From an uncultured Gemmatimonadaceae bacterium (GTDB lineage: Bacteria > Gemmatimonadota > Gemmatimonadetes > Gemmatimonadales > Gemmatimonadaceae), in the NCBI GenBank assembly GCA_963781585.1, contig CAWAGQ010000011.1:128001-192000 (forward strand): a stretch of DNA of 64,000 nt, in the 5' to 3' direction. Of the stretch, positions 42,001 to 48,000 are shown piece after piece. Position numbers: made by a program. Position 1 is the first letter of the stretch. Each line of letters starts with the position of its first letter.

Positions 42001-45000
42001 CTCTGGCCTCTGGCCTCTGGCCTACAACCTTTGGCCTCCTACAGGAGTATCAGATCGCGCCTTTCGTTCAGCCAGTCGTTCTCCTTTGCCCGCCGCCGAC
42101 CGCGAATGACCGACGAGGAGCAGTTCCAGCGCTTGCGTGACGGCGATTCGGCGGCTTTCGAGGAGATCTTTCGCACGTCATACGCGGCGCTTGTGGGAAG
42201 CGCGGAACGAATCGTACGCAGTCGCGCGCAAGCCGAGGAGATCGTGCAGGACGTGATGCTCGAATTGTGGCGCCGCCGTGAAACGCTCGCTCCGCATGGA
42301 TCGCCACAGGCATATCTCTTCCAATCGGTTCGCAACCGGGCGCTGAACGAGGTCCGTCACCAGCGGGTGGAGCGCCGCAACGAGCCGCACCTGTCACTCG
42401 AGCTCGCGCGACACGCCGGTGCCGACTCTGGCGCGATTGAAGAGGAGATCGAAGCGGCACTGCACGACGCGATCGTATCGTTGCCCCCGAAATGCCGCCA
42501 GGTATTCGAGATGAGTCGCGTACGCGGTTTGCGATACGCCGAGATCGCCCAGATCCTGGGGGTCTCGGTAAAGGCAGTGGAAGCGCACATGGGGCGTGCC
42601 CTGCGCACCATGCGCGAGCGTCTCGCGCCATGGCTGCCGGACGGGGAGGCGTTGTGAGTGGGAGAGGGTGCGCCGCCACATGACCAGGCAATCACGAATG
42701 TGCGCCGGCAGTGGGGCTGATACGACGTGCAGCCGATCGCGATGACGGTGGCACGCCGCGCGCGAATCTCATTCGTCGCATTGCTGGCGTGGGTCGTGCC
42801 CGCGCTGGCGGGCGCGCAGAACGTGGTGGGCGACACTGCAACGCATCGCGCTCCGGTCATTCGCGCCGTCGAGATCGCGCGACAGACTGTGTTCGACTCA
42901 CTCGAAGCCGAGTTCTGGCTCTATCATCTCGTCAACTCGCTTCACGTTCGTACCCGCCCCTATGTGATCCAGCGCGAGTTGCTCTTCGTCCCGGGTGAAC
43001 CCTACGATTCGGCGCGCGTCAACGAGTCCGAGCGCAACCTGCGCGCCCTCGGCATCTTCCAGGATGTGTCGATCGACACCGCGATGACCGATTCCGGCGT
43101 CGTGGTACGCGTTCGAACCATCGACGCCTGGACGACCACCGCCGGACTGGGACTGAGCACATCGGGGTCGCAGTACATTCTCGATCTGTCGCTCCAGGAG
43201 CTCAATTTCCTGGGCACGCATACCATTGCCGCGATCGGGTATGTGAACGATCCGGATCGCAGCAGCATCTCCGTCGGCGTCAGCACACCCCGCGTCATCA
43301 ACAACCGGATCGGCGTTGGCGCGTCGTACCTCGACCGGTCCGACGGGCATGCCGGGGCGCTGTCGCTCACCTATCCATTCGTGAGCCTCTCGTCACGCCA
43401 CGGCGGCTCGCTTCGTACGACATTCGTCAACGGCCGGGTGCTGCGGTTCTTTCGGGGCAATCCGGTTCCTTCTCAGGAGCTGCGTCGGCTGTATTCCATG
43501 GTTCGGGGTGACGCGGCCGTGGCGCTGATGGGCAGCCCGCGCGGCTACGTCCGGCTGGGTCTTGCCGCCCAGGTGCGACGCGAGGACTTCGGACCGGACG
43601 ACGGCTCGATCGCGATTCCACGGACCATCACCGCGGCCGCGGGGCCCACGCTCGGCGTCAGGCGGCCGCACTATATCCGGATGCACAACTACCAGACCAT
43701 GGGCCGCGTTGAGGACGTCGATCTCGGCGCCTGGATGCAGAGCGAGATTCTGGCTGCGCCCCGCGCCTGGGGCTATGACCGGGATGGCGTCGGCGCCGCG
43801 GTCACGGCCGGGATCGGGCATCGCATTCCTTCGGGATTCGTCCAGATCGTCGGAGGCGCCAACGCGCTCGTCACCAGCCAGGGAACGGACTCGGCGTCGG
43901 CCGGCGCGTCGGCCGTACTCGTTATGCAGGCCGGTCCGCGGCACCTGCTGGTGGCGCATGCCGGCGCGGGACTCCTCAGGAACCAGTTCCCGGGCGGCGA
44001 GTTCGACTACGGGCTGGGCAACGCCCTGCGCGCGTTTCCCGCGCACGCCTTCACCGGCAACCGTGAATACCAGCTCCACGCCGAGTATCGATTGATCATC
44101 TGGCCGCGCATCCTCGGCCTGGTGGGGGTCGGGGTCGCCGCGTTTGTCGATCACGCCGGTGCCTGGTACGACGGCCAGCCCTCGCGGACGGGGACGGATC
44201 TGGGCGTGGGGCTGCGGCTGGCCTCGCTGCGCGAGCCGGGGAGCGCTTGGCGCTTCGATCTGTCGCGCCGCCCGACAACCGACGTGCTGAGAGCGGCGTG
44301 GGTGATCTCGGTGGGGCGCGGGTTCGTCTTCCCGACGTTCTGAGTCACGAGTGCTTGGGTCCGGCGGCGAGGTAATGTCTGCGAGTTGTATCAGCCGTCG
44401 CGGCACTCTTGACGCCTCGCGACCGGCATCCTATCATCACCGCACAATCGAACGTCCGTGGTGATTTGCCGCCTATTGCCGCCACGTAAAACAATGAGCT
44501 AAAAAGCGACGCGCCCGGCGGCAGTGTCAGCCCGGGCGTTTTCGTTTTGGTGCCTTTCACCGGCCAGTCCATGATCGCGTATCGCGCGCAGTCATCGCAG
44601 GTCTGCATGTGTACACCCTGGCGGCCTCCCTCGGGAGAGCGGTCCGGGGTTGCCGTGCATGGCGCACGCGACCCGAGCTAGAGCGAGAAGTCGCTCCAGC
44701 GCCCGGCCCGGCCCTCCTCGAGGGCCGGGCCTCTTTTTTCTTGCACGCAGGAGAAATGATATGACTGCCATTCAGACCTGGAGCCGGCCGCTCGCTGTGC
44801 TCCACGAACATCCCGACTGGTTCCGCCCGCTGTTCGCCGAGCTCGATCACCGGGGCCACGAGTATCGCCGGCTCGACGCGGCCTCGCACACCTACGATCC
44901 CGGTGAACGCGACGTGCCGTATTCGATCGTCTTCAATCGCGCCAGTCCGTCGGCGTATCTGCGCGGCCACGGCGCCTCCACCTTCTTCACGCTCCACTGG

Positions 45001-48000
45001 CTGCGTCACCTGGAGCGCCACGGCGTTCCGGTGGTCAACGGCAGCGCCGTCTATGCGCTGGAGCTCTCCAAGGCGTCGCAGCTCGATCTCCTCGATCAGC
45101 TCGGGTTGCCGTATCCGCGCGCGGTGATCATCAACGATCCCGCGCACGCCCTCGCGGCCGCCCGCCTGCTGCGCTACCCGATCCTGGTCAAGGCGAATAT
45201 CGGCGGCAGCGGCGCCGGCATCGTGCGCTACGACTCGCCGGCCGCCCTCGCCGACGCGGTGGCGGCGGGGGCGGTGGCCCTGAGCGTGGACGGCACGGCG
45301 CTGGTGCAGGAATGCGCGCCGCTGCGCGGGGGGCACATCACCCGCGTCGAAACGTTAGGCGGCCGCTATCTGTACGCGATCGATGTCTTTCCCGCGGCCG
45401 GCTCGTTCGACCTCTGCCCGGCCGATGCCTGCCAGACCACCAGCGGGGTGGAACTGGTGCGCGGCGCCTGCGCGGCCGACGCGCCCCGCGGCGGCCTCCG
45501 CGTCGAGGCCGCCCACCCGCCGGCCGCCGTCATCGCGCAGGTCGAGCGAATCGCCCGCGCCACGCAGCTCGATGTCGGCGGCATCGAGTATCTGATCGAT
45601 GATCGCGACGGCCAGGTCCGCTTCTATGATATCAACGCCCTCTCCAATTTCGTCGCCGATGCGCCGAACGTGATCGGCTTCGACCCGTTCGTGAACCTCG
45701 TCGACTACCTGGAATGGCGGGCACTCGGCGACCAATGCGACGCGTCATCCGCGGCGTTCGCGCCTCCCCGCCTCTCGCTCTCCACCGCTCACCACGTCAC
45801 GCCATGAGATACGGATACTGGCTTCCCGTCTTCGGCGGCTGGCTGCGCAACGTCGAGGATGAAGGCATGCAGCCCACCTGGGACTACGTGCGCCGCCTCG
45901 CCCAGCGCAGCGAACGCATCGGCTACGACCTCACGCTCATCGCCGAGCTGTTTCTCAACGACATCAAGGGCATAGACGCGCCGTCGCTCGACGCCTGGTC
46001 CACCGCGGCCGCGCTCGCTGCCGTGACCGACCGCCTCGAGCTCATGGTGGCGGTGCGACCCACGTTTCACAACCCGGCGATCCTGGCCAAGCAGGCCGCC
46101 AACGTCGACCGGATCTCCAACGGCCGGCTCGCGCTCAATGTCGTGTCGTCGTGGTGGAAGGACGAAGCCCGGCGCTACGGCGTGCGTTTCGACGAGCACG
46201 ACGAACGCTACGCGCGCACGGCCGAATGGCTCGCGGTCGTCGACGGCGTGTGGCGGGAGCCGACCTTCACCTTCGACGGGCGGTTCTATCGTGTGGAGGA
46301 GACCGTGGCGCAGCCCAAGCCGGTCCGCTCTCCGCGCCCCACGATCTACGCCGGGGGCGAATCGGACGCCGCGAAGGACCTCATCGCCCGTACCTGCGAC
46401 GCCTATGTCATGCACGGCGATCCGCCGGAACGGATCGCCACGCGGATCGACGACCTCCGCCGCCGGCGGGACGCGCTCGGCCTTCCCCCAATGCAGTTCG
46501 GTGTGGCGGCATACGCCGTGGTCCGCGCCGACGAACGTCGCGCGCGCGCCGAAGTCGAGCGGATCACGAATGTGGCGCCGGGATCGCCCGGGTACCGCAA
46601 TTACCAGGACTGGATCGCCAACACGAGGCTCGAGCAGCGACTCAGCCTGGAGGACTACTCGGTCTCCAACCGCGGGCTGCGCGCCGGCCTCGTCGGCACG
46701 CCGGGTCAGGTGGCGGAGCGGGTGCGCGAATTCTCGGCGGTCGGAGTGGACCTGCTGCTCCTCCAGTGCAGTCCGCAGGCGGAGGAGATGGATCGGTTCG
46801 CCGCGGAGGTCATGCCGTTGGTAGGAGGGAGCGATCGGGCAGCCGCGTGAGAAACCGCGGGTACCGCGCTACCGCGGAGGCCGCAGAGGACACAGAGGTC
46901 CGGCAGGCGGCGACAGCACGCCGGTGCAGCTCTCTGCGGCCTTGTATGTCTTCATTGAAGAGTGTTGGTTCGGGACGGCGGCAGCTCGATCATCGTGGCC
47001 GGGGCGTACAGAGCCCGTCGCAGAGTAGGAGCGCCGCCCCACCGATCGCTCGAAGCCCGAACAGCTACCTGGGTCGACGAGAACCCGCATCTTGCAAGGC
47101 AGGGCGCGCGCGATCCCAACGCGGAGTGCCACAGATGTCCTACGTGGGGATTGATGTCAGTAAGGCGACCCTCGACGTCGCCGTGCATGCGGGGGCGACG
47201 CAGCAAGTGCCCAATGACCCCGCCGGCTGGGCGCGCCTCATCACGCACCTCCGGACCGTGGAGGCCGCGCTGGTCGTGCTCGAAGCCACCAGTGTCTACC
47301 ATCGGGGCGTGACCACGGCGCTCGTGACGGCGGGGATCCCGGTCGCGGTGGTGAACCCGCGCCAGGTGCGCGAGTTCGCGCGCAGCACGGGGCAGCTCGC
47401 CAAGACGGATCGCCTGGATGCCGCCGTGCTCGCCCGCTTCGCCGCCATGGTGCGCCCCACGCCCCGACCGATTCCAGACGACGCCACGCAGGCGCTGGCG
47501 GCGCTCCTGGAGCGCCGCCGCCAGCTCCTCGAGATGCTCGGCGCGGAACAGAACCGGCTCGCCGTGGCGCGGCCCGAGGTGCGCGCCAGTGTCCGGCAGG
47601 TCCTGCGCACGCTGGAGAAGGCGTTGGCGGCGACGGACGCTGACGTCGATCGCTGGATCCGGGAGAGTCCCGTGTGGCGGGCGGAGGAGGCGCTCTTGCG
47701 CAGTGTGCCGGGCGTGGGGCCGCAGACGGCGCGGTTGCTCATCGCCGCCCTCCCCGAGCTGGGGCGCCTAACGCGTCGCGAGATTGCGGCCTTGGTGGGC
47801 GTGGCCCCGCTCGCCTGCGATTCCGGCACGCTGCGCGGGCGCCGCCGCTGTTGGGGCGGACGCCGGCACGTGCGGGCCGTGCTGTACATGGCTGCGCTCA
47901 CGGCCAGTCGCTGCAATCCCGTGCTGCGGCCGTGGTATCGCCAGCTCCGCGCGGCGGGCAAGCCGGTGAAGGTCGCCCTGACGGCGTGTATGCGTCGGCT

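Follow-up and report, generated by a model that had tools for sequence, protein, structure and literature searches.

Control of transcription by cysteine codons has been described in at least two settings. Mycobacteria carry polycysteine small reading frames on leaderless transcripts that serve as attenuators (10.1101/834739), and a Cys-codon upstream reading frame followed by a terminator lies ahead of cysS (PMC8632094). A further precedent is LdmS, an ATP-grasp Asp-Met ligase under S-box or CymR control (PMC9486568). A literature search found no description of a SAM riboswitch in tandem with a Cys leader. The operon discussed here lies in a 64-kb stretch of the genome of an uncultured Gemmatimonadaceae bacterium (the window), and both kinds of element are found in front of its two genes (Table 1).

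Table 1. Features of the operon and its leader region, with positions in the window.
Feature	Position	Strand	Basis
Sigma-70-like promoter (TTGACG, 17 nt, TATCAT)	44409-44437	+	Consensus match only
SAM-II (SAM_alpha, RF00521) aptamer	44448-44524	+	40.1 bits against a gathering cut-off of 36; full model 1-79
T1, terminator-like hairpin of the riboswitch	44511-44548	+	Read directly from the sequence; conserved with the aptamer
Leader reading frame, 36 codons and stop, beginning MIAYRAQSSQVCMCTPW	44571-44681	+	Same frame in relatives
Candidate regulatory codons TGC ATG TGT (Cys-Met-Cys)	44604-44612	+	Within the leader frame
T2, strong intrinsic terminator	44705-44741	+	12-pair stem (11 G-C), then T run
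Gene 1, predicted ATP-grasp ligase of the LysX/ArgX/RimK structural type, 348 aa	44761-45807	+	Profiles, AF2 model, Foldseek
Gene 2, luciferase-like monooxygenase of the 3RAO group, 348 aa	45804-46850	+	Profile and PDB matches

The SAM-II aptamer ahead of the two-gene operon, first reported in the genome-wide survey's note, is genuine, with an E value of 1.4e-5 for the 64-kb window. The whole genome has exactly two RF00521 matches. The second, at C3:326151-326225 (44.3 bits), lies 43 nt 5' of a gene with a metH match (TIGR02082, E 8.6e-143 over the 486 residues available), as the survey had also stated. The only promoter-like site in positions 44000-47200 (shuffled sequences average 0.2) has 10 of 12 consensus matches and would start the transcript a few bases 5' of the aptamer. 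T1, which the survey did not mention, is built from arms near 44512-44518 and 44532-44538, with TTTTCGTTTT behind them. The GGCGGC of the 5' arm and loop can pair instead with GCCGCC in the aptamer, and when the 3' arm is withheld the minimum-energy fold pairs UUGCCGCC of the aptamer with GGCGGCAG of T1 (-24.1 kcal/mol). The aptamer and T1 are nearly invariant across 15 aligned loci, for which RNAalifold gives 10 pairs; scarcely any covariation is seen because the aptamers are almost identical. Among genome loci, 17 of 62 have a near-identical aptamer in the same place, upstream and on the strand of the gene; among metagenome loci the count is 51 of 80, found at 68-110 bits with a model built from the aligned loci. 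A hairpin resembling a terminator comes after the aptamer in 53 of 59 loci.

Between the two terminators lies a small Cys/Met frame that had likewise gone unnoticed. The frame and an invariant GGTCTGCATGTGTA stretch recur in the metagenome loci L072, L079, L142 and L144, in all of which the Cys-Met-Cys codons are unchanged. In L142 the DNA downstream of these codons is preserved, yet it is read in a different frame, and the differences among related leaders are spread evenly over the three codon positions (76, 65 and 64). Together these observations argue that selection keeps the codons and the RNA, not the peptide. T2, with its stem at 44705-44731 followed by TCTTTTTTCT, has a folding energy of about -29 to -31 kcal/mol and ends 20 nt before the start of gene 1. 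The survey had recorded a strong terminator between aptamer and gene and left it unexplained; the terminator is real and belongs to the leader-frame unit, a second regulator. Its stem shows compensatory changes among five tandem loci.

Is the second regulator needed to explain the locus? It could be argued that regulation rests with the SAM-II riboswitch and T1 alone. The frame would then be an ORF that arose by chance, and T2 would be a terminator that leaks or is a relic, or else a hairpin that does no more than stabilise the RNA. The frame in the window has just three Cys/Met regulatory codons, no Shine-Dalgarno-like sequence before it and no promoter of its own; as a single promoter-like site was found, the frame would lie inside the transcript, unlike that of leader-only loci, where it stands at the 5' end. 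A riboswitch alone, moreover, suffices in 60 of the 127 related loci that have sufficient upstream DNA to be classified. On the other hand, a terminator as strong as T2 and so close to the gene would, if left unregulated, shut the operon down, and the frame, the Cys-Met-Cys codons and T2 are preserved in seven further loci that, with the window, make up the 8 of 127 carrying riboswitch and leader in series. Another 35 loci, mostly leaderless, have only a Cys/Met-rich frame and a terminator, with runs far richer than that of the window, in which as many as 8 of 8 codons are Cys or Met; the terminator after the frame in all 43 leader loci is part of the class definition. The remaining 24 have neither element by the rules used, and some of these hold Cys/Met frames without a terminator detectable by rule. 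Frames with at least four Cys/Met codons among eight consecutive ones turn up in 41 of the 127 upstream regions when the sense strand is read and in 3 of the 127 when the antisense strand is read, and the 43 leader peptides contain 12.6% Cys and 8.6% Met, compared with 1.0% and 1.1% for the two enzymes. A single sensor is an improbable account of this leader. The riboswitch and the leader are interchangeable in front of one operon across these loci, and in a Thermoanaerobaculia genome, from another phylum, the pair again stands behind a leaderless Cys/Met frame with a terminator. The leaderless state is implied by a TTGnnn-N16-19-(T/G)AnnnT motif found 4-12 nt 5' of the in-frame ATG in 28 of the 35 leader-only loci and before none of 114 other ATG triplets in these regions. 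With 35 loci carrying the leader instead and 24 carrying neither, the claim that the riboswitch is conserved across Gemmatimonadales along with the gene pair holds for the pair and not for the riboswitch. The aptamer is also neither the sole nor the direct controller of the genes in the window, as T1, the Cys/Met frame and T2 intervene.

The two terminators may be read in series. With SAM bound, the aptamer would hold its own GCCGCC segments, T1 would form and transcription would end at about 44548. Without SAM these segments would be free to pair with T1 at its 5' arm and loop, allowing the polymerase to continue into the 36-codon frame, which would then be translated. With charged Cys- and Met-tRNA at hand, translation would proceed to the stop codon, the leader would take its default fold and T2 would terminate the transcript; a ribosome stalled at the Cys/Met codons would open the long hairpin that holds them, and the freed 3' strand would compete with T2 and let transcription enter the genes. 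The consensus fold of five tandem leaders does place the codons on the 5' strand of a long hairpin, with compensatory change in 14 of 56 pairs. The fold tests demonstrated no clear conserved antiterminator, and their equivocal outcome is a point in favor of a single sensor. In truncated transcripts a masked stalled ribosome raised the pairing of the T2 5' arm from 0.44 to 0.70 in the window. Only 10 of the 18 leaders showed a rise of at least 0.1, and in several of the 18 a ribosome placed at the stop codon left this arm just as paired as a stalled one. In full-length minimum-energy folds with the ribosome masked at the Cys/Met codons, T2 stayed intact among the leaders listed, except for one that lost T2 under every mask. 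No other Cys leader with a terminator was found elsewhere in the genome, so regulon-level support is not available here. Taken together, a leader with two terminator sensors in series is quite likely, and it would mean that the operon is made only if SAM and charged Cys/Met-tRNA are both low.

Gene 1 (GGAG 8 nt upstream of its ATG) was proposed by the survey to be a divergent LysX/RimK-type ATP-grasp ligase on the strength of weak Pfam matches, which were reproduced exactly (LysX_preATP_grasp 7.9e-5, CPSase_L_D2 2.5e-4, ATP-grasp 7e-3). A match to rimK_fam (6.2e-15) also falls below its cut-off. The AF2 model (pLDDT 86.3) has LysX (3vpd_A, E 9.2e-19) and ArgX (3vpb_A, target TM 0.88) as its best structural matches, and K144, the GGSGAG loop, Q183, E276, D290 and N292 are kept in 31 homologues of 32-66% identity. 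At the level of the predicted structure, an ATP-grasp fold of the LysX/ArgX/RimK type with preserved ATP/Mg residues is confirmed. PsnB, from a graspetide pathway, is also among the top matches (7drp_A, E 9.1e-18), and there is a weak match to the ATP-grasp peptide maturase TIGR04187 (2.7e-4). These matches, and the arrangement of a small ORF, a hairpin and then enzymes, which is typical of RiPP loci, could suggest that the Cys/Met-rich frames are precursor peptides modified by the two enzymes, with the hairpin merely setting the precursor-to-enzyme ratio. Such a role is hard to credit. The riboswitch-only loci have the enzymes without the frame, the substitution pattern and the frame-shifted relative show a peptide that is not under selection, and where an FMN reductase gene is present the frame precedes it rather than adjoining the ligase gene. 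Graspetide cross-links need a pattern of Thr/Ser/Lys and Asp/Glu that the leader peptides lack, and the LysX and ArgX structural scores at least equal that of PsnB.

Gene 2, which overlaps the end of gene 1 by ATGA (from 45804), matches Bac_luciferase at 4.1e-62, in keeping with the luciferase-like monooxygenase described before. The resemblance to dimethylsulfone monooxygenase does not extend to identity: SfnG is the best NCBIfam match, but its 248 bits are below the equivalog cut-off of 383, and 4 of the 7 DMSO2-contact residues checked are replaced. By its PDB matches (3rao, E 1.1e-129; 8vw6, 6.2e-110; SfnG 8t0u, 5e-55; MsuD, 2e-43) the protein falls in the B. cereus 3RAO group, which is uncharacterised, and it is presumably FMNH2-dependent. 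A role in making a cofactor or secondary metabolite has also to be weighed. A RimK/CofF-like ligase might add glutamate to a flavin or deazaflavin-type cofactor that serves an F420-type luciferase-like oxidoreductase, with SAM/Cys control reflecting the need of that pathway for SAM or cysteine; the RimK family includes cofactor glutamate ligases (gene 1 matches MptN at 8e-7), and gene 2 matches the F420-dependent LLM subfamily TIGR03560 (4e-43). The best matches of gene 2 are nevertheless the FMNH2-dependent, C-S-cleaving SfnG, SsuD and MsuD, the adjoining partner gene in relatives is an NADPH-dependent FMN reductase, and being switched on when SAM, Cys and Met run short, as proposed, is typical of supply pathways. 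With the Sphingomonas operons described below also linking the pair to cysE-like and metNIQ genes, a cofactor role is very unlikely.

Gene 1 has matches at E<=1e-20 in 89 of 301 Gemmatimonadota genomes, 66 of them at 50% identity or above and 23 only at about 30%. The survey's observation that the monooxygenase accompanies gene 1 is borne out in a larger sample, where it is present in 137 of 143 related loci, with -60 to +153 nt between the two matches when both are on one strand. The ATP-grasp gene stands without this monooxygenase at six loci in Chloroflexota and one in Myxococcota. An FMN reductase gene that opens the operon in many relatives had been overlooked: 41 of 143 loci have a reductase match, and in 36 of these 41 a gene for an NADPH-dependent FMN reductase (PF03358) immediately precedes the pair. 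No reductase or transporter adjoins the pair in the window, and neighbours beyond the reductase were not conserved among 16 genomes examined. Three Sphingomonas genomes have a gene for a cysE/EpsC-like acetyltransferase directly 5' of the ATP-grasp gene and the monooxygenase gene 3' of the latter, and in all three the sole PF03180 (MetQ) match is close to the pair. In S. elodea and S. trueperi the monooxygenase gene is followed by one for a MetN-like ABC ATPase, and S. trueperi has the full string of cysE-like, ATP-grasp, monooxygenase, metN (NIL domain), metI and metQ.

The upstream FMN reductase and the Sphingomonas gene order support sulfur scavenging. The loci that have gene 1 without the monooxygenase, the variable neighbours beyond the reductase and the lack of a reductase or transporter beside the pair in the window weigh against the proposed chemistry. 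The survey's interpretation is partly supported, and the link that it drew from SAM regulation to sulfur or methionine metabolism is among the parts that stand. An ATP-dependent carboxylate-amine ligase and a flavin monooxygenase may together recover sulfur from an organic sulfur compound, a role that is somewhat favored; the compound would probably be amino-acid-like, and the monooxygenase superfamily is that of the C-S-cleaving SsuD, SfnG and MsuD. The ligase might first block or extend the amino or carboxyl group of the compound so that the monooxygenase can act, although this order of ligation and then C-S cleavage is doubtful. As a whole, a serial two-sensor leader in front of a sulfur-recovering enzyme pair is a reasonably probable explanation of the operon.

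The main new point to emerge from this analysis is that the strong terminator T2, which was left unexplained in the genome-wide survey's note, is probably part of a Cys/Met leader-frame attenuator placed in series with the SAM-II riboswitch. The leader of the operon holds two units. The first consists of the SAM-II aptamer and a terminator-like hairpin, T1, and the second of a short reading frame with Cys and Met codons followed by the intrinsic terminator T2. Behind them lie the two structural genes, an ATP-grasp gene and a luciferase-like monooxygenase gene.

Features of the operon and its leader in window coordinates, with the gene string of a Sphingomonas relative in the coordinates of its own locus
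Feature	Position	Strand	Remarks
Sigma-70-like promoter, TTGACG-17 nt-TATCAT		+	ends 10 nt 5' of the aptamer; sole such site in 44000-47200
SAM_alpha (RF00521) aptamer	44448-44524	+	40.1 bits, gathering 36; model positions 1-79 (full)
T1 hairpin, then U-rich run TTTTCGTTTT	44511-44548	+	arms ~44512-44518 and ~44532-44538; directly 3' of the aptamer
Leader frame, 36 codons	44571-44681	+	start and stop in the leader; codons 12-14 TGC ATG TGT (Cys-Met-Cys)
T2 intrinsic terminator	44705-44741	+	12 pairs, 11 G-C; about -29 to -31 kcal/mol
ATP-grasp gene	44761-45807	+	ATG; GGAG 8 nt upstream
Monooxygenase gene	45804-46850	+	start overlaps the ATP-grasp stop by ATGA
S. trueperi string (locus L184)	1566-6857	one strand	cysE/EpsC-like acetyltransferase, ATP-grasp, monooxygenase, metN (NIL), metI permease, metQ/NlpA

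An Rfam scan of the 64 kb window returned two matches above gathering, one tRNA and SAM_alpha, and the aptamer is where the survey had placed it. Its 3' end is 237 nt from the start codon of the ATP-grasp gene. In the consensus alignment the P1 stem CGUGGU...GCCACG and the segments GAUUUG and GCUAAA are all invariant in 15 related loci. The aptamers of these 15 aligned loci are near-identical, too alike for covariation, and the models were used without the pseudoknot. In the same alignment the T1 stem is nearly invariant along with the aptamer. Of the 59 loci examined for it, 53 have a terminator-like hairpin behind the aptamer. When the 3' arm of T1 is withheld, the most stable fold of the window's RNA (-24.1 kcal/mol) pairs UUGCCGCC of the aptamer with GGCGGCAG, which lies in the 5' arm and loop of T1. 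Binding of SAM would lock those aptamer bases away, and T1 could then form.

Classical SAM-II riboswitches are described as masking the ribosome-binding site. The riboswitch in the window is like them in occupying the leader of a gene tied to methionine/SAM supply, and the other SAM-II copy of the genome precedes metH. The survey's count of two copies was borne out, the second match being located 43 nt before a gene that matches metH. The window's riboswitch is unlike the classical ones in that T1 and then a second regulatory unit lie behind the aptamer, and in its host phylum, Gemmatimonadota. The metH aptamer (L031:1501-1617, a locus fetched from contig C3 of the same genome) likewise has a G+C-rich hairpin behind it, with a short run of pyrimidines, only ~40 nt from the start codon, and both SAM-II copies in this genome may have hairpin-based expression platforms. 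Two related loci carry a second SAM-II aptamer in the opposite orientation, facing the divergent neighbour (L017:1022-1097 (-), 60.6 bits, and L059:1026-1126 (-)), and therefore have two riboswitch-controlled units back to back. No description of SAM-II in Gemmatimonadetes was found in the literature searched, which lay mostly outside subscription journals and excluded supplements.

The strong terminator reported between the aptamer and the gene is real. T2 separates the leader frame from the first structural gene and ends 20 nt from the start codon of that gene. Its strength and position imply that the operon would be silenced unless T2 itself is regulated. The window's frame recurs in four related loci (L072, L079, L142 and L144), and the stretch GGTCTGCATGTGTA is invariant. 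In L142 the DNA 3' of the Cys/Met codons is conserved, yet the reading frame is shifted by one insertion and one deletion. The consensus fold of five tandem leaders places the Cys/Met codons in the 5' strand of a long hairpin and the stop codon in a second hairpin, with T2 last. Changes on both sides are found in 14 of the 56 pairs of this fold, compensatory pairs in T2 among them. A ribosome stalled on the Cys/Met codons would have to open the first hairpin, and the freed 3' strand may block T2. In transcripts cut at the T2 loop, with the stalled ribosome masked, pairing of the T2 5' arm in the window rose from 0.44 to 0.70, and the same treatment raised pairing of the T2-type 5' arm by at least 0.1 in 10 of 18 leaders. 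When a ribosome was masked over the Cys/Met codons in full-length minimum-energy folds, T2 stayed intact in the leaders listed, and one leader was without T2 under every ribosome mask. A four-segment antiterminator scheme was not demonstrable from the folds of the leaders.

The frame in the window is not leaderless, as it begins about 125 nt 3' of the sole predicted promoter and behind the riboswitch, and no Shine-Dalgarno-like sequence was found before it. We assume that it is translated. The genome as a whole was also scanned for further Cys/Met frames with a terminator behind them. A strict rule gave no match and a relaxed rule six, of which only the window's own frame was convincing.

A sample of 301 Gemmatimonadota genomes gave matches to the ATP-grasp gene in 89; identity reaches at least 50% in 66 of these and only ~30% in the other 23. 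The ~30%-identical paralogues occur in other families of the class and are found without this monooxygenase. Loci were fetched for 64 of the 66 genomes, G182 (unpublished) and G213 (split) being left out, and 80 metagenome loci with 69-81% identity were added; L025, from the unpublished genome G157, counts as one unit. The monooxygenase gene accompanies the ATP-grasp gene in 137 of 143 loci, and several of the remaining six end at a contig edge. Among the listed loci with both matches on one strand, the monooxygenase match begins -60 to +153 nt after the ATP-grasp match ends. A PF03358 NADPH-dependent FMN reductase was matched in 41 of the 143 loci. In 36 of these 41 it is directly upstream of the ATP-grasp gene, and where this is the arrangement the leader sits before the reductase gene.

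Rfam detected an aptamer upstream of the gene and on its strand in 15 of the 28 genome loci scanned. A covariance model built from 15 sequences of the aptamer with its hairpin recovered one more genome locus and 51 of the 80 metagenome loci, the latter at 68-110 bits. Loci that lack the aptamer have short frames dense in Cys/Met codons and then a terminator, for example MTRAQLPAMMCCCMCCMCQPAHGGAGA in a published genome. In the classes tabulated here, a riboswitch is a match to the aptamer model, and a leader is a frame with at least 3 Cys/Met codons in a window of 8 and a terminator-like hairpin no more than 110 nt past its stop codon.

Number of loci with each type of leader upstream of the operon
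Class	Genome loci (n=64)	Metagenome loci (n=80)	Sum
Riboswitch only	16	44	60
Leader only	26	9	35
Both in series	1 (the window)	7	8
Neither	19	5	24
Upstream DNA too short	2	15	17

The classifiable loci number 127. Two further tandems that the rule missed, L079 and L125, were recognised by eye, and several of the loci classed as neither do have Cys/Met frames but without a terminator that the rule can detect. All the observations of the survey's note that were checked hold. Its interpretation is partly supported: the link between SAM and the gene pair stands, and it is extended here by the Cys/Met frame and T2 in series with the riboswitch. Relatives use either unit or both.

The Cys/Met frames exceed what would be expected by chance. 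At least 4 Cys/Met codons within some 8-codon window were found on the sense strand of 41 of the 127 upstream regions, versus 3 of 127 for the antisense strand of the same DNA, and in the densest frames of the relatives 8 of 8 codons are Cys or Met. Across 43 leader peptides Cys accounts for 12.6% and Met for 8.6% of residues (initiator excluded), compared with 1.0% and 1.1% in the two enzymes. A promoter-like motif, TTGnnn-16-19 nt-(T/G)AnnnT, ends 4-12 nt 5' of an in-frame ATG in 28 of the 35 leader-only loci and precedes 0 of the 114 other ATGs of those regions. This distance places the start of the mRNA at or beside the start codon, and these frames would thus be leaderless.

A possible role for the frame is to encode a functional or precursor peptide. 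The differences between related leaders are spread evenly over the three codon positions (76, 65 and 64), which, together with the frame shift in L142, argues that selection acts on the Cys/Met codons and the RNA but not on the peptide. The pattern speaks against a peptide product, and a regulatory leader fits. A subgroup of the leader frames (metagenome loci L074, L077, L078, L082 and L139) has a common C-terminal tail, ...HLMWHQPHGTGGAHA. Conservation of this tail seems to be at the DNA level, and it may be a stalling or arrest sequence.

Tandem riboswitches, such as the SAM and AdoCbl riboswitches before metE, place two independent terminator-based sensors in series, and expression occurs only when both signals are low. 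The leader in the window is unlike them in that its second sensor is a leader frame read by the ribosome and not an aptamer. Leaderless polycysteine sORFs in mycobacteria have been described as cysteine-responsive attenuators that unmask the following gene's ribosome-binding site (Canestrari et al., 10.1101/834739). These short sORFs (Ms5788A, the 'Cys ribulon') resemble the frames of the relatives: Cys codons occur in runs right at the mRNA's 5' end, before sulfur/cysteine genes, and ribosome pausing is read there as low cysteine, as it is in the reading proposed here. Unlike the mycobacterial sORFs, the window's frame mixes Met with Cys codons and is internal, behind a riboswitch. Since a strong intrinsic terminator follows the frame, the output here is presumably transcriptional, which also differs from the mycobacterial case. 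In Rhodobacterales a uORF with two Cys codons and a terminator is found before cysS (the uORFC-8-2 motif, PMC8632094). The motif is like the window's leader, and like classical attenuators such as trpL and hisL, in that a few codons for the sensed amino acid lie in a stem that is followed by a U-run terminator; it is unlike it in phylum and in the downstream genes, and Cys and Met codons are together only in the leader described here. The literature searched, mostly outside subscription journals, contained no description of leaderless mRNAs in Gemmatimonas or of this enzyme pair, and the same search, in which supplements were not included, yielded no description of tandems of a riboswitch and a leader peptide.

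The ATP-grasp protein has no convincing family match in Pfam. It matches the NCBIfam model rimK_fam at 6.2e-15, and its scores of 55.3 bits with TIGR00768 (RimK, cut-off 143.4) and 32.6 bits with TIGR02144 (LysX, cut-off 275.6) are far below both family cut-offs, for which reason it was filed under neither name. The protein was aligned with 30 homologues of 32-66% identity, taken from 2060 matches at E<=1e-3 among 1.8 billion representatives. Across the 31 sequences little or no variation is seen at K144, G148-G151, Q183, R195, E276, D290 and N292. From the canonical roles in this fold, we take K144, G148-G151, Q183, E276, D290 and N292 to be the ATP-binding lysine, the glycine-rich loop and the acidic/Asn Mg2+ ligands. 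The AlphaFold (AF2) model has the three-domain ATP-grasp fold (pLDDT 86.3, pTM 0.85). The best Foldseek matches in the PDB are LysX (E 9.2e-19) and ArgX (target TM 0.88), followed by PsnB, Ddl and RimK, all at E<=1e-15. The protein is thus an ATP-grasp ligase whose catalytic set is intact. It is like LysX/ArgX and RimK in that these are its best structural matches (target TM 0.85-0.88), in the match to the pre-ATP-grasp domain and in the ATP/Mg residues, but identity to them is 15-21%. No gene for a LysW-type carrier was found near the ATP-grasp gene. Residues 216-242 comprise an insertion specific to the family, FNLCPAD-C, in which up to three cysteines are conserved, and behind it a disordered loop (pLDDT <50). 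As far as the alignments show, this segment is not present in LysX or RimK; it may serve as a metal site or as a lid over the substrate.

The second gene encodes a luciferase-like monooxygenase (PF00296, 4.1e-62). Its nearest matches are the uncharacterised B. cereus protein 3RAO (E 1.1e-129) and 8VW6 (6.2e-110), and no publication on the function of either was found; SfnG (5e-55), MsuD (2e-43) and SsuD (1.7e-38) are more distant. Identification with SfnG was considered. The product scores 248.4 bits with the SfnG equivalog TIGR04021, compared with a cut-off of 382.95. Among the DMSO2-contact residues of SfnG given in PMC11588060, W11, W121 and N297 are retained, and R55, Q53, Y60 and Y296 are replaced by L49, A47, K55 and S288, in a comparison that leaves out F267 and W285. 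The replacements sit within a charged ELFLNDIKG segment that is common to 3RAO and 8VW6 and missing in MsuD. The score below the cut-off and the four replaced pocket residues therefore indicate that the protein is not SfnG and that its pocket differs. In its distance from SfnG it is about equal to 3RAO. It has in common with SfnG, SsuD and MsuD the fold family, an FMN reductase partner in many loci, and induction by a lack of sulfur amino acids as read from the leader. In the window itself there is no FMN reductase beside the pair.

Within 7 kb on either side of the pair in 16 genomes, no conserved neighbours were found apart from flavin reductases. A PF01425 amidase-signature gene is near the pair in four of the 16 genomes (L147, L149 (genus g9), L148 and L159), directly 3' of the monooxygenase gene in two of them. 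An amidase might undo the bond made by the ligase; at four of 16 genomes the association was too weak, and it was dropped as context evidence. In L157 (genome G147; 6131-10206, all on one strand) the place of the PF03358 reductase is taken by two genes that flank the pair, upstream one of the nitroreductase family and downstream one for an NADH:flavin oxidoreductase of the Old-Yellow-Enzyme type. In the window an IS110-family transposase gene (~47177-48070 (+); DEDD_Tnp_IS110 4.9e-24, Transposase_20 2.5e-17) directly follows the monooxygenase gene, and the original downstream gene or genes may therefore have been displaced. Upstream of the operon are genes for a FecR-like anti-sigma factor (40673-41821 (-)), an ECF sigma factor (~42106-42657 (+)) and a POTRA-domain outer-membrane protein (42727-44343 (+)), and no relation of any of them to the operon was seen.

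Homologues of the ATP-grasp gene, counted by itself, occur in Gemmatimonadota, Acidobacteriota, Alphaproteobacteria and Chloroflexota. A search outside the phylum with one Chloroflexota homologue as the query, limited to one genome per species, gave 12 loci, and the monooxygenase gene is directly 3' of the ATP-grasp gene in five of them. This monooxygenase is missing beside the ATP-grasp gene in six loci from Chloroflexota and in one from Myxococcota. No riboswitch was detected by Rfam at E<=0.01 in the 12 loci. In the Thermoanaerobaculia (Acidobacteriota) locus a promoter comes first, then the leaderless frame MFPVLSMVTMTCACPMCPMRGHDFFES and a terminator, and after these the ATP-grasp gene and the monooxygenase gene. 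In three Sphingomonas genomes the pair is directly 3' of a gene for a cysE/EpsC-like acetyltransferase (family match: Sphingomonas sp. TDK1). A MetN-like ABC ATPase gene comes after the monooxygenase gene in S. elodea and S. trueperi. Each of the three Sphingomonas genomes (L184, L172 and L174) has a single PF03180 match, and it is close to the pair. The S. trueperi ATP-grasp protein matches the RimK family of Pfam above the cut-off. The Sphingomonas strains are cultured, which offers a handle for genetics.

If both units work, the operon would be transcribed only when SAM is low and the charging of Cys/Met-tRNA is low as well. Three features of the context point to an operon that recovers sulfur from an imported, probably amino-acid-like, organosulfur compound: it would be induced when SAM, Cys and Met are lacking, it has a flavin reductase as partner, and it is linked to a cysE-like gene and an importer of the methionine type. 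One idea, which rests on analogy, is that the ligase would mask a charged group before C-S cleavage. The substrate range of SsuD also underlies this idea. In the salvage of S-alkylcysteine in B. subtilis (snaA-cmoO-cmoIJ) the amino group is blocked and luciferase-like monooxygenases then attack the sulfur side chain, although an acetyltransferase is used instead of a ligase. LdmS from Staphylococcus is an ATP-grasp Asp-Met ligase under CymR/CodY or S-box control (PMC9486568). LdmS is like the ligase described here in being an ATP-grasp ligase under sulfur amino-acid regulation; it is unlike it in that it is not among the close sequence or fold matches and in that its partner is a peptidase and not a monooxygenase. 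The analogies to LdmS and to the B. subtilis salvage serve as a lead only.

A fuller scheme, which we put forward as a long shot, is a new ATP-dependent sulfur salvage. The ligase would join an imported S-amino-acid derivative (which in Sphingomonas would enter through an importer of the MetNIQ type) with a carboxylate or amine and so mask its charge, and the 3RAO-type monooxygenase would then cut the C-S bond to give sulfite or a precursor of cysteine or homocysteine. The pathway would be gated by the riboswitch and the ribosome-read leader in series, opening at low SAM and low charged Cys/Met-tRNA.

All parts of this system belong to known kinds. In the literature searched there was no description of their combination or of the regulated enzyme pair. 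A riboswitch and a ribosome-read amino-acid sensor in series would amount to a two-input control for which no description was found there. The occurrence of the same operon with one sensor, the other, or both provides a natural experiment on the exchange and stacking of RNA sensors. The regulation also points to the purpose of the pair, which would be the relief of sulfur amino-acid shortage. The regulated pair is widespread, and for the monooxygenase there is a solved structure, 3RAO. The operon in cultured Sphingomonas is a direct route to the substrate, and its identification would add a step to the recovery of sulfur from organic matter by soil bacteria.
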